Shown: piece after piece, positions 5,009-30,722 of the stretch
Numbering within the stretch: position 1 is the first letter of the stretch
Layout: each line of letters starts with the position of its first letter
Assembly (NCBI GenBank): GCA_964016885.1
Contig: CAXHJY010000969.1
Coordinates: 1-30,722 of the forward strand
Source: Eledone cirrhosa
Lineage: Eukaryota
DNA length: 30,722 bases
Reading direction: 5' to 3'
Translations under genes and position numbers: made by a program
The notes under the pieces: model-generated
Told to the model about the DNA's origin: nothing
Seen by the model: the letters and a program-made list of their open reading frames with translations, nothing else
Databases searched by the model: none

Positions 5009-5130
5009 TGTTAGGCGAGTTCCATAATGCATGGGGTCATATGATTACCATTTTGCAGATTATCCTCATCAGCTCTATTTATAGCAAGTCAACTTAGTGA
5101 ATGTGTTGTTTTTCAGGCTATATATATATA

Positions 5131-5335
5131 TGAAAGGATATATCTTCAGCACTTTGAGGCCTCCATATTTTTCATGCTAAACATATAAGAGGACCTATCT
5201 TCAGCACTCTGGGGCCTCCATATATTTCATGCTAAACATGTGAAAGGTTATATCTTCAGCACTTTGGGGCCTATATATTTTGTGTTAAACATATGAAAAA
5301 TATATCTTCAATACTCTGGAGCTTCCATATATTTC
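5131..5335. repeat. Minisatellite, about 55-bp unit x ~3.8, with ABAB structure
   Basis: TATCTTCA recurs at 5141, 5196, 5251 and 5303; units 1 and 3 share TGAAAGG/CACTTTG, units 2 and 4 share ACTCTGG/TCCATATATTTC. Confidence 0.92.
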
Positions 5336-5349
5336 TTGAGACAAATACA

Positions 5350-6867: not shown

Positions 6868-7801
6868 CCCAATTAAATCTACAATGAATGAAATTATTTT
6901 TGAAATGCATAAGTAAAAAAAAATCCAATAAAATATAACAAACAATTCTCTACAATTTGAAAAATAAAAATACCCAAACTATAAATAGCAACAGGCCGAA
7001 GAAAAAAAAACAACAGCTGAACATCTATGGAGTATTAGTAAAAAAAAAAAAGATTTATAAAAAAATTGTAAAAAGCAAAATAATTTTTAAAAGCCTTTAA
7101 AGGGAAAAAAATGATGAAAACAACTTGAATGAGGAGAATCCATCAATAGAAATATCTATAAAGATTTTTGATTCGAGAAACAATGATAAGAGCCTTTCTC
7201 AAAAGAGAATTATGAGAAAACCAGATTGAAATAAAAAGTGTTTTAGAAGAATAAGAATTGACAGTTATGTATATTAGTTAGCAAGTTGGTTTAAAGTGAG
7301 CAGGTTTTAGTGGGAAGGAAGTAGTAAAACTTTGATTATCCTCATTTACAGAAGTAATCATTTAATCGCCCTTGTGATTGATAATAGAACATACTCAACG
7401 CTACACTTTACTCTAACTGCAGCTGCACTCCTCTAGATTCTTTAGCTAAACAATTACTTCTTTATTGACATCCATCTAACAACTTAATGATCTTAATGTT
7501 TAGTTCTATTACACACAAATTGGTCATTTTCAAATATTACATTTCTATTCATCATCCTGATTGCTAGGATTACTTATAATGCATTTAATTAAAATTTTGC
7601 TTTCATTAAATACATTATATTGCTTTTTTTTATTGGGGTTTTTTTCCCCCTTAAAATTCTGGAACTCAAATTATAGATCATCATTTGGACAGATAGAAAC
7701 CAAAATGCAAATATATCTTTATTCTAAAGAAAAATAAACTAAATCTTTAAAATACATATTCATGCCCATACACACACACACATATATATATATTTTTTTT
7801 T

Positions 7802-8033
7802 ATTACATAATAAACAATACAATCTAATTATTCCATTGCCAAAGGTTTCAGGAAACTAGACGATCTTAACAGAAACGTCCAGCACACTCATCAGATGAAA
7901 TATTTATGTTGAGCATGCTGAATGTTTCCTGAAACCTTTGGTAATGGAATAATTATATTGTGTTGTTTATTATGTAATTAAATAGCTCTGTACTATACAT
8001 AGAGCACTCTTTTTACCTTTTCTACGGAAATAC
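7802..8033. mobile_element. Penelope-like terminal remnant: inverted arms (7802-7856 / 7924-7978) plus conserved 3' extension
   Basis: The 55-bp arms are reverse complements with 3 mismatches. The extension AGCTCTGTA..TACATAGAGCACTC..TTTACCTTT..CGGAAATAC recurs at 16852-16905. The arms carry hammerhead sequence. Confidence 0.65.
7829..7902 (-). ncRNA. Type I hammerhead ribozyme motif with the triplet mutated to GCA
   Basis: Minus strand: TATTTCAT-CTGATGA-[GCTGGACG/CGTCTAGT helix II]-GAAA-CC-TTT-GG-CA-ATGGAATA. The opposite arm keeps GGTA. Confidence 0.65.
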
Positions 8034-8192
8034 GTAACATATGTGTGTGTGTGTAGAAAATAGTGTTTTGTTTGAAGGCTACCACAGTGTGGATTGGATG
8101 GTAAATGTTAAAAATATGATGATAACAATGATGCTGGGGTGTCACCTTGCAGTTCTTTATAGTTCTTTTTGAAATTTCAAAAAAGTGACAAC

Positions 8193-8410
8193 TTAAACCT
8201 TTAGCATTTAAACCAGCCGTATCCGGCCAGAATTCTCTCACCTCTTTCTGTTCAAACTGGCCATAACCGACTGCCTAAACTTATGTTAAGATAAAATAAA
8301 TAATTCCAAAATCTCGTAGATTCGATATTATGAGATAATTATGTGAAATAAAGTGTTTACCGTGAAAATATAATGGTACATATAGAGTAATGTAAATGCT
8401 AAAGGGTTAA
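8193..8410. mobile_element. piggyBac-like MITE (218 bp including flanking TTAA)
   Basis: TTAA-ACCTTTAGCATTTA ... TAAATGCTAAAGGG-TTAA: 14-bp TIR with one mismatch, TTAA on both sides, GGG terminus, no ORF. Confidence 0.85.
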
Positions 8411-10011
8411 GGGTGATAAAAAATATACAACTCCGAGCAAGCTATTAATCTTTTAATGAACTAATTTTATTCTGAAATATAAGGACCTATAAAGAACTAC
8501 AAGATAACATCTCAACATCAGTTATATATTTTAAACATTTACCATCCAATTCACATTGTGGTAGCCTTCAAATAAACATTATTTTACATACACACACGTG
8601 CATGTGAATGAGAGCATTAAACTGAGGATATTCACAAGATAAAGACAAAGGACTAATTCGGTAAATAATTTAGATAATTAAAGTAAATTCGAAATCTAGA
8701 AAGAAATAACAAAAAGAGAGAAAGAGAAGTAGCAGCTCAGTTTGAATAATAGATTAAAAAGAAGAGAAGATATCTGTTAAAAAGCAAATATCCTAGTATA
8801 GTTTCCAGGCTAAGGGCTAAGAAGAGGAAATGGTTCATTATAAGGTTGTGATAATGAAGTGCAAATCACAGACGATGAGGTCAGGAGGAAAAGGGTCTTA
8901 CTTTATGCCCTTCATGTTGCTGCAATGACGTCAAAGATACTCCCCAAATTTTTCTGTCATTGTATCTCTGTGCATTCTATAAGGAAAACAGAAAAAACTG
9001 AAGTTTGGAAAAGGCATTATTTTTCAATTCAGATGATTCAAATTAGAAAATAAATCAACGAAATTTAACCAATGTTATCTTGAATCGAAACTTTGGGATT
9101 TTTATATGCTGCTGCTTCTTCATATATATATATGTGTGTGTGTGTGTGTGTATGTGTTTAGGTGGATAAGAGTTTTTTAAAATAGTCATAAGTATACCAT
9201 TATTATACCATGAAGGATAAAAATAAAATTGAACATCTTAAAATCAAGAGAAATATTGACACAGAATTAATTGTTAAGAAACAAAGAAACATTTTATCCA
9301 TACTACAGTTGAGCAAGATATATCTACTTAATGGATAGTTAAATAAGGTGGTGGTAAGCCCTATTAAGTCAAAATTGTTCCCTGAAGGCTTCATCTTTCA
9401 TGTAGTTTGTCTAGCACAAATAAAATTGATAGATTGTATCCTTCATCACCATAGAGGAAGTTAGACTCAACACCTCAAGCTGTAATGAAGCACTTGTCAA
9501 ATTATGCAATACAACTGTCAAATTTTAATCAAATTATATGACGTTTGTAATAAAAACAAGAAAAAGAGAAAAAATTATGTAATCAAAGAGAAAGTGGAAA
9601 GGGAGTGGCAGACTCTACAACTCTGTCTAGGCAGTATAACTCAGCTGCACCCTATAGATAAAATAGCAAAGAACAGCCAGCAACACCCACTGCATCAGCT
9701 ACCCCCTCCTAATTTTGCAGATGAAAAACGGCAGTCTGGGAACCAAGGACACCAGATGTCTAGACGGTTAAGCCCCAGTACCTTGAGTTACTTCTCACTT
9801 GCTCAATCCATCTCTCTATAAATAGGTACCATGGTATGGTTACAGTGGACTGAAACATTGAAAAGCCAGTATTTCTGCTAAAAGCCAAGACACAAACCAC
9901 TGATACTTTCACTAAGGTTTTTAGGTGAACATGTAGTGGTGAGTATACACATACACACTCTTTAACCTCCCTTTCTTAGCAGAACATCCAACTGCAAGTA
10001 TTTTCAAAGCT

Positions 10012-10125
10012 GCACCAGCACTGAGCTGGTATTTTCTTTATCGACTCCGAAAGGATGAAAAAGTAAATGGACGATAGTGGACTTTAAAATGAGAGTGTGG
10101 AGAGCAGGAACAAATATCTAATGCT
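10012..10125 (-). mobile_element. SINE family A fragment
   Basis: CTGGTATTTTCTTTATCGACTCCGAAAGGATGAAA is the reverse complement of TTTCATCCTT..GGGGTCGATAAA..TACCAG. Confidence 0.7.
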
Positions 10126-10844
10126 CTCATCACTCAACCAAATTTATACATGAATTTTATAAAGTTCATACCTAACAGTACATTTTAATTAACTTCTTTG
10201 ATTCAGTTAATTATGAAAAGAAAATTAATCCATCTGAGAACTGGTTTTAAAATATTCAAATGAATTAAACTGAAATTACACAAATTTATCACAAGAAATT
10301 TAGCTCTATAAATTATCATAAAATATATGTTTTGTTTAAGAAAAAAATTAAAATGTAAAATTTAGATAAAAGGATATAATTACAAGAAATAAGATAAATA
10401 TTTCATTTGACAAAGCACAAGGTCAATTTTTGAAATGGCATCTGTACAGATAGTTAAAAGTACATATTACTTTATTTTATCAACTTGAGGAGTTAAACTC
10501 TGAACAATGGTGTAATTAACTGTCACAAAGCATCAATTCTGATGTTCTAATACCACAACAATAATATTTCTCATATTGACAGACGGCAATAAATTTGTGG
10601 GGTTAGGTTTATACTCAAGTTTAGTACGTTACTGGTTCTTAAGAGCCCTAAAAATATGTGAAGCAAATTTTTTGGTTGTTGTCTCAGATTTGTGTGTACA
10701 GCAACAGAACTTCTTTATATAAATGAGTAGTAATTGAGAGAGAGAAGTTCACTTCAACTTTATAGGGAGTCAGCAACTGATCAGGATTTAAATGTCTTCT
10801 GGACCTAAAGAGGAAACCTAATCTCTGGGTTGCAGTTAAAGCAT

Positions 10845-10950
10845 TATCATCCTTTTTACATTCATATTTCCATGTTAGTATAGGTTGAACAAGACCTTTT
10901 GTGACAGGCTTCTACAGCTGGATACTCCACTTGATGTTAATCCTCACTTT
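10845..10950 (-). mobile_element. RTE-type 3' tail fragment
   Basis: CATC..TTTAC..TTTCCATGTTAG...TTCTACAGCTGGAT resembles 15550-15650. Confidence 0.55.
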
Positions 10951-11109
10951 TTTCTCTTTTACTTGCAGTTAGACATCTTCGCATGTCTAACTGCTGAGCT
11001 GCAGGACTTCTGTTTATGACAGATATAAACAAATGCAAATGCTTGCACTAGTGATATAAAATGCAAAGCAAAGACACAAACACACACACAAACAAACAAA
11101 TATATATAC

Positions 11110-11270
11110 AACAGGCTTCTATACAGTTTCTGTCTACCAAATTCACTCAAAAGGCATTAATGAGTCCAAAGCAATAGTATAAAACACTTGCTCAAAGTGC
11201 CACACAGTGCAATACAATCGAAAACCACATGGTTGCAATGCAAACTTCTTAAGCACACAGCCATAACTGC
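11110..11270 (-). mobile_element. tRNA-type SINE, separate family, diverged
   Basis: CAGTTTCTGTCTACCAAATTCACTCA...ACACTTGCTCAAAGTGCCAC...CCACATGGTTG...CACACAGCCA next to a CA-rich tail. Recognised from memory as an octopus-type SINE; no second copy here. Confidence 0.55.
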
Positions 11271-11415
11271 ACTGCAGCAATGTTATATATTTGAGGTAGC
11301 CATGAGAAATTTCACAGATTGTGATACTAACATGTGTAGCAATCATTCAGTGAAGGGTTGGTGTAGATATCATAGTGATTGTACTGTTGAAAGATATTTC
11401 ATTGCTGTGTCTTTA

Positions 11416-11889
11416 TTGACCCTTTTGATACCAACCCACCAGAAATCACCATGGTCTTATACAAAAATGCAGATTTTAAAATGTTTATACTTAAATCCAT
11501 CCACCATAACTTTCTTTAAAATATTTTTGTTGAGTAATCTTCCATGTGAAGGTGCATGGCCTAGTGGTTAGGGTGTTGGACTTATGATCATAATGTGATG
11601 GGTTCAATTCTGCTCCAGTTCACTCAGCTGAAAATGAGTACCAACATTAACTGGGAATTAACCCTGCAATGGACTGGCATCCTGTCTGGGAGGTGGGATC
11701 TTGTCGCTTAATGCCAAGGAAACTGTGGTAAGCACCAGCCTGATGAACCTCCAAGCTTGAAACAGATTAACTTTCAAATGTTCCAATCATCAGTTTACTA
11801 ATAAAAAGTTATTTTATTAAATTATTCAAAAATATTTTCAAAAATTATTGAAGCACATTTCATTTTAAAAATGGTAACAAAAGTGTTAA
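11416..11889. mobile_element. piggyBac-like MITE interrupted by a SINE
   Basis: TTGA-CCCTTTTGATACC ... GGTAACAAAAGTG-TTAA are inverted termini with few mismatches; homologous to 1901-2152. Confidence 0.7.
11548..11767 (+). mobile_element. tRNA-type SINE, family C head, nested in the MITE
   Basis: A-box-like TGGCCTAGTGG and B-box-like GGTTCAATTC, then TGCTCCAGTTCACTCAGCTG; TAACTTTC occurs at both 11507-11514 and 11768-11775. Confidence 0.78.
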
Positions 11890-12183
11890 AAGATATTTTC
11901 AGTAGCCTAAATGACAATATCTGAAACTCTCGCACATCGTTCCATCACTAGTATTCTAATTGCTATATAGTCCAAATAGTCCTATATATATATGGAGGCA
12001 CATGGCTTACTAATTTTGAATGTGTGATATCAAATCTTTGAATTTAAACTTTTAAAATGTGTTGCTAACAATGTCAAATGAATTCAACCAATTCTACCCT
12101 CTACATAAGAACCAGATTAATATTAGTATTAATTTACATATGTTTCTTATATATATTTTTTTATTTTTACGCGAAACAGCAGT

Positions 12184-12960
12184 TGGAATCAAGAGGACTG
12201 AGTTAAGACAAAAGTGTTGATGAGTAGAAAAGAGGACAATACTCTGGTTCCATCAGGGAAATGGCCATGTTCGATATGTAGAAAAGGAACTGGCATAAAT
12301 TCCATAAAATGTACGCAATGCAGATCTTGGGTACACGAGATGCAGTGGGATAGCAGGCAAACTAACAGGTAGGGAAAACTACGTATGCAGTAGATGTACA
12401 GGGAAAGTTGGCAGTAGTAATTGCAGTGATAGACACATTTTTCCAATGCAGGCGGCTGCTATAGAAGTGGTTGATAGCTTCCGGTACCTAAGTGATCAGA
12501 TTAGCATGGGAGGGGGGTTTCTAAAATAAGGACCGGTTGGAAGAAGTTTAGGGTGCTACTTCCTCTGTTGACAAAGGGTTTCTCCCTGCATACGAAAGGA
12601 CAGGTATATGATGCCTGTGTGAGATGCGCGATGCTGCATGGTAGTGAGACATGGGCAGCAACTGCAGGAGAGAAATGAAGCTAGCATGCTCCGTTGGATG
12701 TGCAATGTCAATGTGCGTGAATGACCAAGCATAGACGAGTTGAGAAAGAAACTGGTGTGCAGGAGAGAAGACTGAGATGGTATGGACATGTGATGCGCAT
12801 GGTAAAAAAGTGCCAAGAAATCCCAGTAGAAGGAAGACCACGAAAAACATGGGTGGAGGTGGTGAGAGCAGACCTCAGATTGCTGAAACTCACAGAGATG
12901 ATGAAGGACCGTGACAAATGGAGAGATGCTGTGCTGAATATGAAACCCACCCCCTCCTTT
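12184..12960 (+). mobile_element. Decayed RTE-clade LINE, RT thumb, Cys-rich finger and C-terminus
   Basis: Frameshifted peptides KTKVLMSRK, GKWPCSICRKGTGINSIKCTQCRSWVH, VDSFRYLSD, MLHGSETWA, RLRWYGHVMR, GRPRKTW; homologous to 14504-15178. Confidence 0.92.
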
Positions 12961-12972
12961 GTTCCTTCTCAG

Positions 12973-13081
12973 ATTTCCTGAAGAAATGCAGTTTTATGTA
13001 TTATGTATAGTGATAATTAATTATTTTGATTGTTTTCATATGCATGTACTTTTGTAACCGTATTGAAACAGACCTAGAAAT
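12973..13081 (+). ncRNA. Type I hammerhead-like motif with about 80-nt helix II domain and imperfect helix III
   Basis: ATTTC-CTGAAGA-AATGCAGTT...AACCGTATT-GAAA-CAGAC-CTA-GAAAT. Helix I pairs 5/5 and the helix II base 8/9. Confidence 0.55.
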
Positions 13082-13171
13082 TAAAGACTGAATTTAATTT
13101 GTTAACCTTGGTCTTTTGTCATTTTGAATATATTTGCAAGCAAGGAAAAGCGGATATAAAATGATGATATA

Positions 13172-13369
13172 TATATTAAACATGATGTTTACACTCTAAT
13201 AATATATTGAATACCTTACTAACTATGGTTACCACTGATTGAATCTGGGACTCTCTCTATCACATATGTGAGAGAGAGAGAGAGAGAGAGAGTCCCAGAT
13301 TCAATCAGTGGTAACCATAGTTAGTAAGGTACTCAATATATTATTAGAGTGTAAACATCGTTTAATATA
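13172..13369. repeat. Near-perfect long palindrome, arms about 86 bp
   Basis: 13172-13258 is the reverse complement of about 13284-13369 with one substitution and a 2-nt indel; centre CACAT|ATGTG plus (GA)n. Confidence 0.95.
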
Positions 13370-13372
13370 GAG

Positions 13373-13471
13373 ATGACTTCTACAGGACTAGAAATGGTTC
13401 ATTCAAAAGAAATCATCAGGGCTTTCCTGATGATTTATTTTGAATAAAACAGTTCTAGTCCTGTAGAAGCC

Positions 13472-13473
<2 letters not shown>
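13373..13473. repeat. Hairpin of 48-bp arms, each arm a degenerate hammerhead core
   Basis: ATGACTTCTACAGGACTAGAA...TCATCAGG-GCTTT-CCTGATGA...TTCTAGTCCTGTAGAAGCCAT; arm consensus CTGATGA-TTTCTTTTGAAT-GAAAC. Confidence 0.85.
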
Positions 13474-13514
<41 letters not shown>

Positions 13515-13995
13515 TGATGCAGATATATATGCATTTATCTATATAGCTTGAGTGTGGATAGGTACAATGTACATACAAATGAAAATATACATAAAGAGGA
13601 AAAAAGAAATGGTCTCCAAATTATCCACAGATCATTTATTTATCACTCAAAAATGGAAGAATGTATATGCCACATAATTTCTTCCATTGCTGCAAGGCCA
13701 CACATTTATTTCAAGCTCAAATGTGGTTTATTTTATATTCTAATGAGAGATAGTTCAGAGGTAAATCCAGTTGGTATACTTTCGGACATCTTAGATGAGA
13801 TCACAGACTGCCTTTATATATATATATGTAAAAGTTCTATTTAAATTGTTGGGATGCAACAAGCAAATATTTTTATAACTGATATAAAGCACTCAACAAA
13901 TAATTGGAGTAAAAATATATCCGGGAGCTTCCAACAGTAATGGTTGCATTCTTTAAGGGTATGTCAATATTTATTTATAAAACTGCTCTATATTA

Positions 13996-14060
13996 TATTT
14001 TATCTGATGAAAGCACACCATAATTTAACTTGGTGTCCTTGAAATATGTATAATGAAATA
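13996..14060 (+). ncRNA. Type I hammerhead ribozyme, AUA triplet
   Basis: TATTTTAT-CTGATGA-AAGCACACCA/TGGTGTCCTT-GAAA-TATGT-ATA-ATGAAATA. Helix I 8 bp, helix II 9/10, near-palindromic helix III ATATGTAT. Confidence 0.8.
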
Positions 14061-14101
14061 AATATGGTTTTTATAAATATAGTTTCCATTTGTTAATATC
14101 G

Positions 14102-14443
14102 TATATATATATATATATATTTGTGTGTGTGTATTTGGTTATATATGTGTATGTAGAGGTAAGCATGTAGATATATATATGTGACCGTGTACGCACATAT
14201 AGATACGCGTACGTATGTGTACGTGTATTTATTGATGTGAGTGTTTCTATATATGTATGTTTTTTTTTTTACGCAGATGTGTGGGTGTGTATATATATAT
14301 GTCTATATATATAAATGTGCGCGCTTGTGTGTGTGTGTGTGTGTAAGTATATGTTATAAGCAAGCATTTGTACGTTGAAAAAATGTTTTAAAAATATATA
14401 CATGTAGATAATATGGTTGGGTTGTATATCTGTAGGTGTATGT

Positions 14444-14490
<47 letters not shown>
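14102..14490. repeat. Degenerate (AT)/(GT) microsatellite tract ending in (GT)n
   Basis: Alternating purine-pyrimidine low complexity with pure (TG)n at about 14449-14487. Confidence 0.85.
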
Positions 14491-14503
14491 ACTAAGAACA
14501 TAG

Positions 14504-15547
14504 ATTTTTACATGTGGCCGGTGCTCTGGTGCAATAAGTAGCAGCAAGTGCCCACAAAATACTAGCTCTTTCAATTGCGCAGAGGGTTCTATAGAAATAG
14601 TGGGCAGCTTCCGTTACCTGGGTGACAAAATCAGCAGTGGGGGAGGGTGCTCTGAAAGTACAGTAGCTAGAGTCAGAACTGGATGGAAAAAGTTCAGAGA
14701 GCTTATACCACTATTAGCCACTAAAGGGTTCTCCCTAAAAATGAAAGGCAGGCTGTATGATGCCTGCATACGAACAGCAATGTTGCATGGCAGTGAGACC
14801 TGGGCATTGTGTGCAGAGGATATACGCAGACTAGAGAGGAACGAAGCTTGCATGCTCCGCTGGATGTGTAATAGTAATATACGTGAACGGCAAAGCATAG
14901 ACGAACTAAGGGAAAAATTAGAAATAAGAGGGATCAGATGTTGTTTACTCGAGAGAAGGCTAGGTTGGTATGGTCACGTGATGCGCATGAAAGACGACAG
15001 CTGTATAAAAAAGTGCAGGGCAATAAAGATAGACGGTAGCCACAGAGTAGGCAGACCCAGAAAAACCTGGCACGACCTGATAAATTCCGACCTCACACAC
15101 TTACACCTCTCCAAGACAATGTCACTGGACCGAGATCTTTGGCGGTACTCAGTAATAGAGAAGACCCGCCTTACCTAAATACAAAGTAAAACCTACTACA
15201 GTCAGTAGGCATCTCTAACAAAATACACCCCCGCCCATCCACACCGCCCCTTTCAATGTAAAGTTATGTTGGTGCCACAACATCCAGGCCGAAACAAATG
15301 AGATCGTGTAGGTGTCACAACAAAAAAATACAGTCCACGCTGTAATGTGGCCGTGTAGGCAACACGGTAAAAACCTCCCAGTCCCACACTGTAAATGTGG
15401 TTGGTATTAGGAAGGACATCCAGCTGTAGAAAACCCGCCAGACAGTCCTATGCGAGCAAGACAACCACTCTTGCCTCAAGTGGGAAAACTCCCGTCCAAA
15501 CCCATGCAAGCGTGGAACATGGACGTTAAACGATGATGATGATGATA
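14504..15547 (+). mobile_element. 5'-truncated RTE-clade LINE: uninterrupted C-terminal frame, 3' UTR and (GAT)n tail
   Basis: Frame open 14504-15178: FTCGRC...FRYLGDKI...WKKFREL...MLHGSETWAL...LGWYGHVMR...GRPRKTW; ends GGACGTTAAACGATGATGATGATGAT. Confidence 0.95.
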
Positions 15548-15549
15548 AT

Positions 15550-15890
15550 CATCATCATCATCATCATTTTACGTCCGCTTTTCCCTGCTTGCAAGGGTGG
15601 GACGGGAACTGATTCTGGCTTGATTTCTACAGCTGGATGCCCTTCCTAACACCAACCTCATTTACAGTGAGTGCTGGGTGCTTTTTTGCCGTGGCACCTC
15701 CACGACCACTTTGCAGTGGAATGATAAGGACCGCAGTCCCTATCATCTCATTTCTACAGCTGAGTAAACTGGAGCAATGTGAAATAAAGTGTCTTGCTCA
15801 AGGAAACAACACATCACCCAGTCTGAGAATTGAACTCACAACCTTTCGATTGCAAGGCCAATGCTCTAACCACTAAGCCATGTGCCTCCA
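15550..15890 (-). mobile_element. SINE with family C tRNA-like head and RTE-derived 3' tail
   Basis: Minus strand begins GGAGGCACATGGCTTAGTGGTTAGAGC...GAGTTCAATTCTC and ends GCATCCAGCTGTAGAAA...CGGACGTAAAATGATGATG. Confidence 0.85.
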
Positions 15891-15893
15891 TGA

Positions 15894-15929
<36 letters not shown>

Positions 15930-16104
15930 ATACTTTGTAAATTTATAAATATATAATAAATTGAAGTGAAAGCAACTGGTGCGTGTGTTTCTTATTGGCA
16001 ACATGACCCTCCCAAAGTATAACAATATCGGTTTCAACACACGATTTCAGATAAAGAATCTTGCTAAACAAATTCAGAAACGAAATATATATATATATAT
16101 ATAT

Positions 16105-16160
16105 ATCATCATCATCATCATCATCACCGTTTTACGTCCGTTCTTCCACGCTAGCATGGG
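16105..16160 (-). mobile_element. RTE/SINE 3' tail stub cut at the Penelope-like arm
   Basis: (CAT)n-CACCGTTTTACGTCCGTTCTTCCACGCTAGCATGGG. Confidence 0.8.
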
Positions 16161-16192
16161 TTTGTAGTTATGTAATAAACAACATAAGATAA

Positions 16193-16265
16193 TTATTTCA
16201 TTTACCAAAAGTTTCACGAAGACAGACGAGCTTGGCACATGCCTTCAATCGTCAGAACGAAATAA
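16193..16265 (-). ncRNA. Type I hammerhead ribozyme, inverted copy with 6-nt shorter helix II domain
   Basis: Minus strand: TTATTTCGTT-CTGACGA-TTGAAGGCA...TGTCTTCGT-GAAA-CTTTTG-GTA-AATGAAATAA. Confidence 0.75.
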
Positions 16266-16741
16266 ATTTTATTGAAATGTATGTTTATATGTATGTGTGT
16301 GTATATGTATCCATGTGTGTGTGCCTGTGTGCCTGCATGTGTGTACTTGTATGTATGTGTGTATACGTACGTGTATATACATATATGTGTGTATTTGTAT
16401 GATTGTATGTGTATGTATATATATATATATAAGTATATATATGTATTTTTGTATGCGTATGTATGTATATTTGTACGTAATTTTTTATGTGTATGTGCAT
16501 GTGCACGTGTGTGTGAGCGTTAGAACGCATGTATATGTGTGTGTTTGTATTTGCATGTAGACGCACATATACTTATGTGTGAAGGTATATGTTTACGTAT
16601 ATGTATGTGTTTGTATATATACATATTCATTTTTTATTTTAATTTCCCCCTTTGCATTTTGTCCGTTATTTTATTTCAGCCTCACTTTCATTTATCCTAG
16701 ACTGTTTTGAAATCCTTACTTCATTTCCATTTCAATAAAAT

Positions 16742-16820
16742 TTATTTCGTTCTGACGATTGAAGGCAGACGTATGTGCCAAGCTCGTCTGTCTTCGTGAA
16801 ACTTTTGGTAAATGAAATAA
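16742..16820 (+). ncRNA. Type I hammerhead ribozyme, GUA triplet
   Basis: TTATTTCGTT-CTGACGA-T-TGAAGGCAGACG/CGTCTGTCTTCG-T-GAAA-CTTTTG-GTA-AATGAAATAA. Helix I 10 bp, helix II 12 bp. Confidence 0.85.
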
Positions 16821-16909
16821 TTATCTTATGTTGTTTATTACATAACTATAAAGCTCTGTAGACTACATAGAGCACTCTTTTCCTTTACCTTTCCTCCGGA
16901 AATACTTCA

Positions 16910-16912
<3 letters not shown>

Positions 16913-16950
<38 letters not shown>

Positions 16951-17265
16951 ACAGATATATGTGGTTATATAGATGAATATGTGTATTATATATATATATG
17001 TGGTTATATAAATGTATAAGTGCATTATATATGCATATATGTATGTAGGTGAATGTACATGTATGTATGGATGTAAATGCATATGTATCTATGGGTATGA
17101 ATGTACGTTTATTCATAAATGAGTATGCTATCATATAGATGGACGTATGTACGGTTTTATGGGCATATGGCCTGTAAAGATGTGTGTGTGTGTGTATGTG
17201 TATATATGGAAGTGGAGGTCCGTATATATATGGTTTGTATTAGCAAAAAAACCGGTATATATATA
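16913..17265. repeat. Degenerate AT/GT microsatellite tract
   Basis: (AT)n followed by alternating low-complexity sequence, with ATATATGTGGTTATATA twice. Confidence 0.75.
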
Positions 17266-17621
17266 GCTAACCTAATAAAATAAACGCTGATAAACCCTAG
17301 ATATTTTTAGCCATTACTTGCTTCCATAGACTTCATAACATTAACGCTTAAAAAACAATATACCGAGGTTAAATTTGATTATCACTTCCTTAAATACCAA
17401 TATAGTTGTACTAATAACAGACATAGATTATATTAACATCAGAATATGACTGCTGGTAACACCAGGTAGAACAACTATTATGAAGAGTACCGTTAAACAT
17501 TTCTGGCAATTTTAACCTTCCATAACCTTAGAAAAAACTTTGTTTACAATTGACGTCCGGAGCATGCGGTTAAGGAATACATTGATCAGTAATTAAACAC
17601 TTTTTAATGTTATATATATAA

Positions 17622-17692
17622 TTGATCCTGACGATATCTTTATAAGGATATTGTGCGCAATATACTAAGAGAATGAAACACGTGTCGATCAA
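17622..17692 (+). ncRNA. Type I hammerhead ribozyme, GUC triplet, palindromic helix III
   Basis: TTGATC-CTGACGA-[...ATATTG-TGCG-CAATAT...]-GAA-ACACGTGT-C-GATCAA. Helix I pairs 6/6; predicted cut after 17686. Confidence 0.88.
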
Positions 17693-17902
17693 ATAAATAA
17701 TGTATTAACTGTTGAATTAGGTGACTTATTTCTTTGTTAATATATGCTCTGTGATTTAACTCAAGATGACCGGAAATATACCGACTTGATATAACCCTGA
17801 AATATCTCTCGTTATTCTGGATATAAAATAAACCACATTTGAGCTTGAAATAAATATCTGATCACCTTACTATTATAGAATCATCTGGGAGCGGTGACTA
17901 AT

Positions 17903-18013
17903 CTCTCAGAGGCTGAGGTCACAAGAGCAATTAAAGAGCTCAAATGTGGCAAGGCCACTGGGGAAGATGAAATCCGGCCTGAGATGTTAAAAGCTTTAAA
18001 TAGAGAAGAAATT
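17903..18013 (+). mobile_element. Isolated RTE-clade LINE fragment from the start of the RT domain
   Basis: Translates as LSEAEVTRAIKELKCGKATGEDEIRPEMLKALNREEI, the GKAxGxDxIxxEMLK motif of non-LTR reverse transcriptases. Confidence 0.85.
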
Positions 18014-18839
18014 TGTATATTAAAATACTATTTTGTTCATCATTAGTTGTTCATAAATAAATGAAATGTTAAAAACAGTATAAACAATATTAGCTTTTGA
18101 AAATTGGGTAAAATACTATTATAGACAGAAAAAAGTGGCCACTTTTTTCTTTCCATAAGGGACTCGGTTTTCTAAAGCTGTTATTTATAGTGATTTCTGC
18201 ATTTGAATTCCAAAATTACAAATTTCAAATCATCTAAGCGCCTCAATAAATCATAAGATTTGTTAAAAACAGTATTTTAAAATTTCCCCTTTGATGGAGA
18301 AATTTTATGCTCGAGATGTAAACTAAAATTCCTGAATAGTGTCATGGTAAATATACTTCCAAAAATATGCCAAGGAGTAAACGAAATGAAAGGGTTAGGA
18401 AACCCCAAACCTTTCTTAAAATATTACCATCGCCCTGAAAACTAGACCTCCTCTTAAAACCAAACAATAACACACTGGTTCTGATAGGTTACTGACCCAC
18501 TATAAGTACGGCTTCAGTACGCTACTACACAAACAAATATCCTTGACTGCATCTATAAAAAAAACAAAGACCATCCCATCCCTGATGATTGACAAGCTCA
18601 TTCCTAAACACTTCAACAGCAAATTCACTGTTACTTCTATAGCTAATACAATATCAGTGTCTAGCTCAGAAAATTTGCCTCAGCCCCCACCATATATTCC
18701 CCTCTCCTTACTGGTAACATCACACCTAAAAAATAAAAATGACACTAAACACATTTCCCAGTCCTTCCTATGTATCTTTTTTCTTCCAGACAATATATTT
18801 GTTGCATCTTTTTTAAGACTTTAGAGTGTATAAATATAA

Positions 18840-19420
18840 AAACACATGATTAAATGATTAGAGTATTCAGCTTAGGATCATAAGGTCATGTGTTTAATTT
18901 CCCAGCTGTACATTGTGTTCTTGAGCAAGACACTTATTTCATGTTGCTCCAGTCCACTTGGCTGAAAAAAATGATACCCGACTCCCCACGGGTACAGGCC
19001 GAAGCTTCACCACCCCCTCCCACTGTAAAGTGGTCATGTAGGTGTCACGACAAAAAGCACCCAGTCCACAATGTAAGGTGGTTGTGTAAGTGTCACGACA
19101 AAAAGCACCCAGTACTCACTGTAAATGAGGTTGGCGTTAGGAAGGACACCCAGCTGTAGAAATCAAGCCAAAATCAGATCTGTAAGAGCAAGACATGGTT
19201 ACCTGACCTGGCATTGCCCCCAACAGGACAGCACGCCTAACTCATGCTAGCGTGGAAAGATGGACAAAAACGGTGATTAAAAAAACTGGCTTTGTCACAG
19301 TGTGATGCTGAATCTCATTAAGGATACACACGTCTGTGCAATTCTCAGTACCCCTAGATACAGAAAAAAGTGGACAGAGAATCAAACCGATCAAGTGCAG
19401 TTAACCATTACACCTTTTCA
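18840..19420 (+). mobile_element. Family C SINE apparently split by an RTE 3'-UTR insertion (about 18975-19278)
   Basis: Head CTTGAGCAAGACACTTATTTCATGTTGCTCCAGTCCAC. The insert has tandem GTGTCACGACAAAAAGCACCCAGT repeats and the CATGCTAGCGTGGAAAGATGGAC tail. The right boundary is approximate. Confidence 0.65.
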
Positions 19421-19504
19421 AAAGTGTTAAGCATGTGGCTAGAAATGTAGACAAGATTGGTTGAAATGTAGACGAAGCATTGGGAAATTTGAAACTACAG
19501 TCGC

Positions 19505-20700
19505 CAAAAAAAGTTCAGAGATCTACTGCTACTAATAGCTACAAAGAGTCTCTCTATTAGAGTCAAAAGCCGGTTTATGATGCTTATGTGCGAATGGCAA
19601 TGCATCATCATCATCATTTAACGCCAATTTTCCACACTACATGATAGTGAAATTTGGGCTTTGTGTAAAGAAATGAGGCAAGCATGCTCTGATGGATGTA
19701 TTATAGCAGTATTCATGAGTGACGAAGTATCAATGAGCAGAGAGAACAGCTGGGCATAAGAAACATCATGTACAGTGTGCAGGAGAGGCGACTGCGATGG
19801 TATGGACATGTAATGCATATGAAGGATGAGAGTTTCAGTGCACTCAAAATCAAAGGAACCCTTGAAAGGGAAAGACCAAGAAAAACCTGGAATGATGTAG
19901 TGAGGGCCAACCTCATGAAGATGACTCAGGACCAAGAAAAGAGGCGATATCCTATAATACAAGAAACTCATCTTCCCACGCAAGTGGAATGAAACAGCAC
20001 AAAGAAGATGGCTAACCTACCTACTACCCTCCACTCTAAACCGAAAGAAGCAGAGAGGCGGTATAACACTCAGATCCCATCTCCTGCCCACCAGTGTACT
20101 CCTGAAATCCCTGCCAGCATGCCTCTGACCCCCTTCTCCACTCTAAACCGGAAGCAAAGATATGAAACAGCTCTCAGGTCCTCACCTGCCAATATACTCT
20201 TGACTTCTTCGTCCAACTCGTGCAAGCATAGAAATCTAGGAGGAACCATGACTAATTCACCTTTCCTTGCTAAACCTTTGCACTCCCAACCCAGGAAAGC
20301 CTGGCACACCACAAAATGACAAACACCACCCTCTCAACCACTTTCCTCAAGCAGTATATAAATGCCCAGTTTTAGGCCACAAAAGGAAGTCAATCCCCAC
20401 CATGAACACCCCCTTCCAGCAATGTATTGCCAGACCCCAGACTTACCCCCCATCCTTAGCACAACCATATACACTGAGCTGAGCACCCTAGTGCTGGGGT
20501 CAATATAAACGCATCCAGTCCACTCTGTAAGATGGTAGTGCTGGTGCCATGACATAAAGCACCCAGTTCATCCTGTAAGGTGTTAGAGTCACAATAAAAT
20601 GACCCCTGTTTCCACTGTAAAGTGGTTGGCATTAGGACAAGCATCCAGCTGCAGAACCAAGCTAAAACAAAGCATGAATAGAACACAGTCACCTGGCCTC
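19505..20700 (+). mobile_element. Decayed RTE-clade LINE C-terminus and long 3' UTR
   Basis: KKFRDLL, LHDSEIWAL, VQERRLRWYGHVMHM, RPRKTWND; the UTR ends with CACTGTAAAGTGGTTGGCATTAGG...GCATCCAGCTG. Confidence 0.85.
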
Positions 20701-20809
20701 CACACACATATATATATATATATTCAAAACTGAAGATTGGATAAAATCTCCAATAATGGAATTTGCCATTCTCAACAATAAAAGCCCCATGAAACTTTTT
20801 GAAAGTTAT

Positions 20810-21906
20810 AATATAAGTCAATCCGAATATAAGTTGACCACCCCACTATTTTATGTCTGAGAAATGAGCAAAAATCCAAACTCCGTGTAAAGCTTGGGCA
20901 ACACATTGTTTAGATGACGCAGTTTTGAAATTCTCATGAAATGAGCATATATTTATGAAGTTGTAATATTTTGATATCTAAAATGTTTTAAATGTTGTTT
21001 AGAATATAGTTTCTTTCACAACTCCATTTCATCCGTTTTAAAATAAAAGGCTTCAACAAATTTCTCGAATTGTTGTTTACTTCCAGCTCCTGGGAGTATT
21101 TTGCTTTTTATTTTCAGATTTTTTTAAAAATAAACACATCGATTGAAATGCATAACGTCTTACAACTATTAGATAGATTTTTGCAATTGTACACATCTAA
21201 CTCCAGCATGCCCCCTCACTAAGTTAACTAAATAATTCAATATTCAACACAGGTGTAATTTTGAAAAAAATGTTTTCTTTATTAGTTCACTCAGTTTAAT
21301 TGTTTTTAACTATTATGTAAACTAGTTAAAAATGTTTATATCTGCCAAATTATTACTTGAAAATCACTAAAATTTGATATATTATTAGTCTACCCTTATT
21401 TATTTTTGAAAAAAAAAAAAATGTTCCTTTAACTGCTATGGAAATCATTAAAAGCACTAGAGGGAGATCGAGGGGACATAATGAATAGGGAATGATTGAA
21501 AGCAGGATCAACTAAGAGAACATTGTATAAGGATTCAGAATAGAAAGGGAAGGAGACAGCAAGAGAGTGAGAGGGGAAAGCAATAAAATACCAGAAGTAA
21601 GATTGAAAAAAAAAGTGTAATTAAATCAGAGAAAAACAGTCGGCACACGTGTGCATGTATGTGCAGGGTATATTTGTATTAAAAAGTTCAAATTATAAAA
21701 CTTTGTGGGGAAAGTTCTCACTCATGACAATGTAGAAAAATAATATTTTGTTGTAAAATAATCATTTTAGCTCCTTATTTACGTAGAATTTGAAGTCTAT
21801 GAAAATCATCAAAATACTGACCTCAAATATAAGTCGACCATCCATTTTACCATGGATTTTTTTTTTTGCCACACATTTCACAGCTTATATACAAGTAAAT
21901 ACAATA
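20810..21906. mobile_element. Probable non-autonomous Tc1/mariner-pogo-type DNA transposon remnant
   Basis: Subterminal AATATAAGT(C/T)(G/A)A repeats at about 20810, 20826 and 21826; inverted CTTATAT in the right end CTTATATACAAGTAAATACAATA. The left TIR is not visible. Confidence 0.45.
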
Positions 21907-22175
21907 CTAAGATAAAGATATATTATGCACGTGTGTGCAAGTATATATATATATATATATATATATATACTTTCACACAGGTGCATAATATACATGCAGT
22001 TCTGTTTGCATGTCAACACAAGAGCGAGAATGAGGGGCTCATTCTATTGACATGGCTTATAAAATTGGCTGTTAGCATAATTGCAAACGAATCAATTATT
22101 ATTATTCGAAAAACTCAGATTACATTTATTATATATATATATATAAGATCAAAAGATGGTTAAAAGAGTTCCATG

Positions 22176-22243
22176 TATTTTATTATGCGCATTTCAAAAA
22201 CAAATATCATGCGGTGACATTTGCGTTTTCGTCAGATAAAATA
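22176..22243 (-). ncRNA. Type I hammerhead ribozyme, AUA triplet, palindromic helix III
   Basis: Minus strand: TATTTTAT-CTGACGA-AAACGCAAATGTCA-CCGCA-TGATATTTGTTTTT-GAA-ATGCGCAT-A-ATAAAATA. Helix I 8/8, helix II 13/14. Confidence 0.9.
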
Positions 22244-22345
22244 GGGAGACATGATATGAAGGTTAAAAAACACTTGTGAATAGTGCAGTTTTAAATCAAC
22301 ATATCATTTAACCATCTTTTGATCTTATATTATTTATACTCCAGT

Positions 22346-22523
22346 GGATTGGCAGTATCGGTAGAGGGTCGGACGCCATGCTTTCCAGCATAGTTATGTC
22401 CCTTTACGATCTGAGTTCAAATCCCGCCGAGGTTGACTTTGCCTTTCATCCTTACGGGGTCGATAAAATAAAGTACCAGTAATGTACTGAGTATTTGCTG
22501 GCCTTATGCCTAAAGTAGAAACA
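22346..22523 (+). mobile_element. tRNA-type SINE, family A, with 17-bp target-site duplication
   Basis: TGGCAGTATCGG A-box-like and GAGTTCAAATCCC B-box; ATTATTTATACTCCAGT at 22329-22345 and 22524-22540. Confidence 0.9.
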
Positions 22524-22994
22524 ATTATTTATACTCCAGTCCTACAAACTGTAGAGTGTTACTTATCCGATATCTGCATTGCTTTATTGTACTACAATAA
22601 AACTCACCTCCTACATTATATATATATATATATAGAGAGAGGGGGGGGGGGGGGCACAAAACAAAGATAACAAGAAAAAAACGACAGTCAACTAAAAATC
22701 CTTATAGTTTCAGTTAATTAAAGTTAACACTATTCCAGTGTTCGTGGGACGGTACAAAATAAAACGGGGAGCTAGGAGAAATTGTGCCTTTCGTGGTGTG
22801 TGTGTGTGTATATAGTTGCTAATTACTGAGTTACTTATCCGTAAGCGTTGTGTTGCGACGTCTCAATGAAAAGCAGGCGTAAACAGATAAGAACACGCCA
22901 TGTCAGTCATATATAACCAGCAATAAGATGGCAATCAAACGCAAGAGCTTCTATGTATGAATTAACGTTAGATAGATGTTATATAAATGTATTT

Positions 22995-23088
22995 ATGGCA
23001 TAAAACGTATTTCAGTGACACCAGTGTGCAGCTGTTATGCAATCATTACAACAGCAACATATACCGGTGTGATATCATCAGATATTAA
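22995..23088 (-). ncRNA. Degenerate type I hammerhead with long helix II
   Basis: Minus strand: TAT-CTGATGA-TATC-ACACCGGT...GCTGTTGT...ATAACAGC...ACTGGTGT-CACT-GAAA-TACGTTTT-ATG. Helix I is only 3 bp. Confidence 0.55.
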
Positions 23089-23315
23089 CAACTATGTGAA
23101 AGAATTGATATGCTACATGCAAATACTTCCATGTTTGCAAAAGTCCAGTGAACATGACTTGCCAATTGTTTTTTCTTCCTTCGTTTTTTTATGTGGCATT
23201 GGTATCTATTTTCTCACTGGTGGATTCCGTCAACTCTAGGATACGTTGATTAATTTAAGTGTTGACATGTGGTTAGAATGTCTCAGGAAACAATCCTAAT
23301 ATTATATATTAATCC

Positions 23316-23363
<48 letters not shown>

Positions 23364-23459
23364 ACGAAGGAAATGTGGTAAGGAACCAGGTGGACCATAA
23401 CGCACCAAAGTACTCAATACTTAGAGTAGTAGAGTGGGTAATAGGAACAAGTAAGATGT

Positions 23460-30722
<7,263 letters not shown>

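Follow-up and report, generated by a model that had tools for sequence, protein, structure and literature searches.

A likely origin of hammerhead ribozyme cores in a small Eledone cirrhosa contig from truncated 3' ends of Hydra-clade and related Penelope-like elements

Contig CAXHJY010000969.1 of the 3.0-Gb Eledone cirrhosa assembly GCA_964016885.1 (30,722 nt, analysed whole and hereafter called the window) is a small, AT-rich contig with very long microsatellites at both ends, in which an earlier note, made from the letters alone, had described a dispersed cluster of hammerhead ribozyme motifs with no visible parent open reading frame (ORF). The locus raises the question of what carries these motifs and whether their accumulation is special. 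The explanation favoured here, to which a probability of about 0.85 is given, is that the ten cores are hammerheads lying in 5'-truncated, multi-copy 3' ends of retroelements, that five of them are tied to Penelope-like elements (PLEs) of the Hydra clade while the rest likely represent related families, and that the head-to-head pairs among them were likely generated by twin priming.

Type I hammerheads were recognized by a CUGANGA and GAAA core, an NUH triplet and three helices in type I order, a full set that is present in five of the ten cores, the other five carrying damage to the triplet, GAAA or helix III. CTGANGA occurs 20 times in the window against 4.2 expected, a count reached in none of 100 shuffles; three of the spare CTGAAGA matches stem from four tandem copies of a 55-nt unit at 5123-5339. 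A strict descriptor that demands a Watson-Crick or G-U pair at 10.1-11.1 found two motifs (cores 14004, plus strand, and 22235, minus strand; block-shuffle mean 0.02). A relaxed form, loosened after inspection of the window to tolerate U10.1-U11.1 and one mismatch per helix, found five in a scan of 1401-23600 (14004+, 16255-, 16752+, 17628+ and 22235-), against an average of 0.055 over 200 block shuffles of that span, none of which gave more than one. U10.1-U11.1 is a known hammerhead variant (PMC3088659) and is common among the Hydra-clade hammerheads printed in the supplement of PMC8557442. The hammerhead motifs in the window are real and exceed chance, as the shuffled-sequence control proposed in the earlier note bears out. 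All the CTGANGA cores named there are in place, including that at 23081 on the minus strand, for which the helix I closure given, 22995, was wrong, the expected cut falling after 22986. The Rfam search proposed alongside gave the opposite outcome, since the 92 matches reaching E 10 or better across 7700-23200 include no hammerhead; Rfam scans of the window, one of them covering the best 150 of 231 matches, produced only microsatellite and hairpin microRNA noise, together with one weak match resembling a transfer RNA at 15819-15882.

Every motif in the window belongs to a multi-copy repeat family, and the several subfamilies that had been suspected proved to be seven unrelated families, here A to G, with the element at 7894 (H) a relative of family A that is about 80% like A at its 3' end and keeps a GTA triplet in its inverted plus-strand arm. 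First-look candidates, which are not copy numbers, amounted to 2,721 for A, 303 for B, 309 for C, 454 for D, 614 for F, 401 for G and 4,491 for E (queried with a relative). The parts recognized in the window are as follows, "tailed" and "tailless" referring to the two end points discussed below.

7798-7925, minus strand: hammerhead-bearing tailless arm of family H, a relative of A; damaged by a GCA triplet, core at 7894-7888, cut expected after 7837
7926-8042, plus strand: inverted tailed arm of the family H insertion; begins at GAAA, so has no core
12024-12176, plus strand: upstream 3' untranslated region (UTR) piece of family F, separated from the hammerhead by a fragment resembling a long interspersed element (LINE)
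12955-13128, plus strand: hammerhead of family F with a helix II of 80 nt; damaged, with a CUA triplet and a C-C mismatch in helix III, core at 12978, cut expected after 13076
13169-13261, plus strand: additional family E tail in inverted orientation; 93-nt arm of a hairpin whose other arm is 13282-13374
13282-13420, minus strand: family E tailed arm; core 13419, GAAA changed to GAAC
13424-13473, plus strand: family E tailless arm; core 13427, GAAA changed to AAAA
13704-13807, minus strand: family C piece consisting of tail only; no core, absent from the earlier list
13828-13916, minus strand: family B tail, inverted; +51 to +139 from the cut, tiling end to end with the body
13918-14104, plus strand: family B tailless body; intact, core 14004, cut predicted after 14052 (AUA), near-palindromic helix III
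16161-16279, minus strand: tailless arm of family A; intact hammerhead with its core at 16255 and U10.1-U11.1, predicted to cut after 16203 (GUA)
16280-16910, plus strand: tailed arm of family A; a TG-rich 3' UTR leads into an intact hammerhead (core at 16752, predicted to cut after 16810), followed by the tail and (TA)n
17040-17861, plus strand: tailed 3' end of family C; intact hammerhead with its core at 17628 and a palindromic helix III, predicted to cut after 17686 (GUC)
22130-22304, minus strand: tailless arm of family D; intact hammerhead with its core at 22235 and a palindromic helix III, predicted to cut after 22184 (AUA)
22304-22614, plus strand: coreless, inverted tailed arm of family D; interrupted at about 22344-22529 by a high-copy insert resembling a short interspersed element (SINE)
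22900-23266, minus strand: 3' end of family G; helix III long and damaged, core at 23081, cut expected after 22986 (AUU)

The degenerate double core at 13373-13473 is accordingly a head-to-head family E pair, and many E relatives have an intact core, with a helix III of 4 bp. Intact cores were also found in seven of 14 fetched relatives of family F and one of 14 of family G, with one further match in each list that is unrelated or mis-folded. The minimal helix III cited in the earlier note as known from Penelope-like elements and retrozymes does not extend to family E, with its 4 bp, or to family G, in which the helix is long. It is very improbable that the motifs are chance matches or assembly artefacts in the form of false palindromes. 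Such a reading could appeal to their going unscored by Rfam, to the small contig with very long microsatellites on both flanks, and to a descriptor loosened once the data had been seen; it is opposed by shuffle controls far below the observed counts, by hundreds to thousands of first-look candidates for each family, by paired arms that differ in sequence and obey a one-tail rule (below), and by many family D body-to-tail joints in short-read contigs, which probably derive from the same sample and so are not independent.

A coding parent was taken to be a same-strand reverse transcriptase (RT) followed by a C-terminal GIY-YIG endonuclease (EN), upstream of the hammerhead, and this arrangement was found for the families of five cores, namely A/H, B (via a sister subfamily) and D. 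In family A, an inverted copy retains the last EN codons about 500 nt upstream, and a search with these led to loci encoding RT and EN, among which L353 and L354 continue into a shared UTR, pyrimidine-rich and then TG/TA-rich, and an A-type hammerhead; L353 matches window 16511-16848 at 75%. For family D, an EN frame lies upstream in two of 19 relatives, and parents L132 and L133 carry RT and EN remnants that are collinear over 2,156 nt at 91%, running from EN to hammerhead. A sister subfamily of B, 83% identical to the window element, is located downstream of RT and EN in L140 and L350. The flanks of A, B (in its sister subfamily) and D thus extend into RT/GIY-YIG frames, as had been proposed as a check, and of the two identities put forward in the earlier note, truncated Penelope-like ends or non-autonomous derivatives, the former applies to A/H, B and D, with no parent seen for C, E, F and G. 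The window itself contains no PLE frame, since tblastn with natural PLE proteins from the loci gave one low-complexity match only, and in this respect the earlier description was accurate.

Several candidate linkages were discarded. The EN of L143 was rejected as a family B parent, its EN family having a hammerhead of its own with B nested downstream; PLE frames beside family A matches in L012, L013, L019 and L067 proved to be other insertions; and a fixed 5' end, as in a unit-length element, was dismissed for families A and G, some copies of which extend further. Walking upstream with a TG-rich query yielded simple-repeat noise only. Pfam searches of the PLE frames gave sub-threshold GIY-YIG matches or none, and the atlas neighbours of a related frame in L144 carry HTH_animal, RVT_1 and GIY-YIG. 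In one Hydra-type EN family most of 30 loci share one hammerhead, about 1 kb or more past the stop codon. Locus L134 (3037-5577) has an open Hydra-type frame of 847 codons in which a long low-complexity insert separates RT from EN, and its EN has many relatives at 90-97% identity, suggesting a recent burst. Non-Hydra PLE remnants also occur beside Hydra ends (L013:36-533, L019:1981-3240 and L145:5678-7000), that of L013 having a cysteine pair within the GIY-YIG motif.

Hydra elements are characterized by RWK, DKT, a CxCx5C linker, and CxxC and CxH around conserved E and N residues, together with the lack of CCHH, (TA)n targets and hammerheads (PMC8557442). All of the protein marks are present in the family A parents L353 and L354 (RMRWK, DKT, CxCx5C, CxxC-E, N..CxH), and those of the EN (CxCx5C, CxxC before E, CxH after N) in the family B and D parents. 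RWK and DKT were also found in L134, L143 and L067. The A, B and D parent ENs lack CCHH, the absence of a cysteine pair in GIY-YIG being judged by eye, and the Neptune clade, marked by a CX2-5CxxC linker, CCHH in the EN and DKG, was rejected because the parents show the Hydra marks instead. By these motif marks, the families of five cores (A/H, B and D) appear to be Hydra-clade PLEs. Further likenesses to the clade are the C-terminal position of the EN, the hammerhead near the 3' end, the U-U closing of helix II in many families, and inverted, 5'-truncated copies with a tail at one end. The Hydra families described are few and generally shorter than 3 kb, a tendency and not a strict criterion in PMC8557442, with tails of 30-40 nt and a hammerhead lying some 100-200 nt short of the end in elements of 2-3 kb; here, by contrast, ORF remnants of 1.5-2.5 kb, exceeding that tendency once the UTR is added, are followed by 1.1-1.7 kb between EN and hammerhead, tails measure 60-120 nt, and the fetched loci contain at least 16 hammerhead families, not all of them tied to Hydra frames (291 distinct descriptor matches, forming 16 clusters of two or more and 21 singletons). 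Two Hydra-type EN queries returned 59,664 and 53,374 first-look candidates. Hydra-1_Obim of Octopus bimaculoides is listed with a hammerhead in the supplement of PMC8557442, and by eye none of the window motifs matches the printed one.

A number of points weigh against the explanation favoured here. The family B parent belongs to the sister subfamily and not to that of the window; the L143 case demonstrates that nesting can counterfeit linkage; and only four of 30 loci found with the EN end as query have an A-type hammerhead within the 1.5-kb downstream flank. RWK and DKT were not seen in the broken family B and D parents. For families C, E, F and G, a search of 20, 8 and 7 upstream stretches for C, F and G, respectively, and of the 1.5-kb flanks of 19, 24 and 24 further matches for E, F and C, yielded no linked parent frame; at family C locus L309 there is an upstream EN, but it is separated from the family C end by another hammerhead and a (TA)n tract.

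The lack of a visible parent for these four families is what would be expected if at least one of them were a non-autonomous derivative, either resembling a non-LTR retrozyme or a deleted PLE, moved in trans by Hydra proteins. Retrozymes have been argued to derive from PLEs (bioRxiv 10.64898/2026.07.22.740005), and a 420-bp tandem hammerhead unit exists elsewhere in this genome, also dispersed and in inverted pairs. Such derivatives are unlikely, at perhaps one chance in four, as no window motif lies in a tandem unit, C, E, F and G copies resemble the UTRs of the proven families in having graded 5' ends that pass into TA/TG tracts, and C, F and G are old (about 75-88% identity), so that intact parents would be rare. 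Non-LTR retrozymes as described in PMC7229834 and bioRxiv 10.64898/2026.07.22.740005 share with the window motifs type I hammerheads, ORF-less copies and high copy number; they differ in forming tandem units, of some 330-390 bp in coral, mussel and salamander, whereas the window motifs are dispersed or inverted and three window families have coding parents. The 420-bp unit forms an array of about 24 copies in 10 kb with 92% matches (L259, G000:C28:110000001-110010000), with a small hammerhead and 13 descriptor matches. Its family, which also occurs in dispersed copies longer than one unit, does show the tandem hammerhead units by which retrozymes are recognized, and looks like a non-LTR retrozyme moved by PLE machinery.

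Returning to the truncated PLE ends, a regularity concerns where copies stop and how they are paired (families A-E were counted, F and G judged by eye). Of 444 distinct copies, 402 end at one of two fixed points past the cut site, 220 with a tail and 182 without, and most ends adjoin (TA)n, the Hydra-clade target, judging by eye from printed flanks. Among 119 head-to-head pairs, 103 join a tailed to a tailless arm, one is tailless on both sides, none is tailed on both and 15 are unclassifiable; 103 of 104 classifiable pairs (89 of 90 on a smaller set) are therefore one-tailed, with P about 2e-30 if arms were independent. The rule is visible in the window at A, H, E, B and D. The PLE traits of 5' truncation, inverted copies and a tail at one end only are thus all present. 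One-sided tails are already in print (PMC8557442, PMC3846280, PMC8969392), and single hammerheads, or opposite-strand ones 100-700 bp apart, have been read as truncated PLEs (PMC4209133).

In PMC3846280, inverted ends are explained by self-priming, and palindromic junctions are known in rotifer PLEs. Applied here, a single cDNA (complementary DNA) would fold back and prime itself, with the tail then lost from one arm. In the 103 one-tailed pairs the two arms have about equal reach in 38 and the tailed arm is longer in 23, both of which are compatible with such a history; in the other 42 the tailless arm extends more than 20 nt further 5', so that neither arm can be a copy of the other, and some pairs, such as the inverted tail and body of family B at 13828-14104, tile without overlap. 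Twin priming is the simpler reading because non-nested arms cannot be copies of each other, and fold-back is considered improbable, at about one chance in five. It counts on the other side that the loci were chosen by likeness to window pieces, so that the arm-length classes may be biased, and the preference for twin priming, which the non-nested arms favour, is qualified to that extent.

Biochemical work on the Poseidon PLE of the green anole, Anolis carolinensis, provides a possible mechanism, in that both target strands are cut and extended, two RT start sites bracket the tail, and hammerhead cleavage is not needed (PMC11167929). Poseidon resembles the present elements in these start sites, in its AT-rich targets and in an uncleaved template; it differs in belonging to another clade and in a hammerhead that overlaps the start of the ORF. 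A word search of PMC11167929 returned no discussion of inverted ends. By analogy, the PLE endonuclease would nick a (TA)n target on both strands, with the RT beginning at two internal sites and each nicked strand priming at a different one, and the two truncated cDNAs would then be joined at their 5'-truncated ends to give one tailed and one tailless arm. Of 202 close copies, 162 span the cut site; the start of seven falls no more than 5 nt from it and that of the other 33 lies past it. Because 162 copies span the cut, the inserted cDNAs would mostly have been made from uncleaved RNA. UTR microsatellites could themselves serve as targets, which would cause the ends of many families to nest and pile up.

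Whether the window is unusual was assessed with 40 stretches of 10 kb, taken at round coordinates and spread by hand over 19 large contigs. These gave 40 descriptor matches (which are not counts of active ribozymes), against 0.58 in shuffles. Thirteen lay in the L259 tandem array and were excluded; the 27 dispersed ones comprised five from C1-C4 (210 kb sampled), 22 from chromosomes C5-C24 (170 kb sampled) and none from the remaining C28 stretch. A stratified estimate, assigning to all sequence outside C1-C4 the rate seen in the other stretches, puts the genome-wide number of dispersed motifs at 2.0x10^5 (bootstrap 1.1-3.1x10^5), in keeping with the dense population of ribozyme-bearing retroelement pieces that had been supposed. 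A special cluster is another matter: five matches in 22.2 kb do not stand out at the C5-C24 rate (P=0.16), are borderline at the pooled rate once the tandem array is removed (P=0.02) and are high only at the C1-C4 rate (P=0.0002). In this small sample hammerhead density was about five times lower on C1-C4 than on C5-C24 (L220-L257), and Hydra-type ORF remnants made up 4.3% of C1-C4 and 0.7% of C5-C24. By methods that differ from those used here, about 9,000 minimal motifs have been reported from Xenopus tropicalis (PMC4209133), 126,247 hammerheads by descriptor from the axolotl (PMC7229834) and 235 Rfam Hammerhead_1 matches in the giant squid annotation (PMC6962438). Because Rfam misses these motifs, the numbers of hammerheads and Hydra elements recorded for such genomes probably fall far short.

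The minimal hammerheads of metazoan PLEs (PMC4209133) are like those of the window in a long helix II, a short or palindromic helix III, a mostly solo or opposite-strand paired arrangement and many sequence families per genome; in the window, helix I is longer (6-11 bp), position 10.1-11.1 is often U-U or A-U as opposed to G-C, and helix III is longer in families E and G. In the same report such motifs were inactive singly and weak as dimers, and a published PLE hammerhead needed the protein of its element (PMC11167929). None of the five intact motifs is predicted to form a stable helix III as a monomer, and cleavage by the window copies would likely need a dimer or the protein of the element. 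The palindromic helix III of families C and D is predicted to pair in homodimers at about -10 kcal/mol. This capacity, five intact cores and a density above the C1-C4 rate are what might be cited for a ribozyme cluster kept for its function in cutting host precursor messenger RNA. We regard such a function as most unlikely, given that half of the cores are damaged, that they are spread over both strands and seven unrelated repeat families, at a density that fits the small-chromosome rate, that the core in the A, H and E pairs (not B and D) is predicted to be drawn into pairing with the antisense arm, and that published minimal PLE hammerheads behave as just described; the 12 window ORFs scanned also gave no credible Pfam match. 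The window copies are probably inert.

The remainder of the window holds other repeats. Three related LINE-like 3' fragments, presumably RTE-like, lie at 12180-12950, where the family F element is split, at 14504-15178, which is a 224-aa open frame, and at 19600-19990; none has a Pfam match. The SINE-like insert at 22344-22529, inside the family D tail, is of very high copy number and has a short flanking duplication, and more SINE-like pieces occur at about 15280-15880 and 18990-19280. Multi-copy pieces adjoining (TA)n at 15925-16085, 22000-22135 and 23345-23460 matched 51, 10 and 69 loci, respectively, and are probably coreless tails of other PLE families. Long hairpins at 2574-2733 and 21904-21993 had no match among the fetched loci.

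Truncated, inverted and tailed ends, and Hydra elements with hammerheads, are already in print, and the window is ordinary transposon debris; novelty falls by the standard of the earlier note, which had asked whether the copies belong to catalogued elements, because they match the described Hydra clade (PMC8557442). The quantitative arm rule and the size of the Hydra expansion, a hammerhead load that is large for a clade described as sparse, may be new. Neither rule nor expansion size was found in searches of the open-access literature, in which none of nine listed papers containing 'pLTR' also contains 'twin priming', and Evgen'ev and Arkhipova (2005) or Arkhipova (2006) may state the rule. 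More tentatively, and at slightly less than even odds, asymmetric twin priming by one RT-EN complex, always using an outer and an inner start site, would be recorded here in thousands of events, with some 10^5 ends contributed by an expansion of long-UTR Hydra elements in what would be among the most ribozyme-dense of animal genomes. The 103 of 104 rule, together with non-nested arms, leads to a testable twin-priming model for the origin of inverted PLE ends with a one-sided tail, one that ties the in vitro result of 2024 (PMC11167929) to genome structure. Head-to-head arms would also supply many long hairpins in read-through transcripts.

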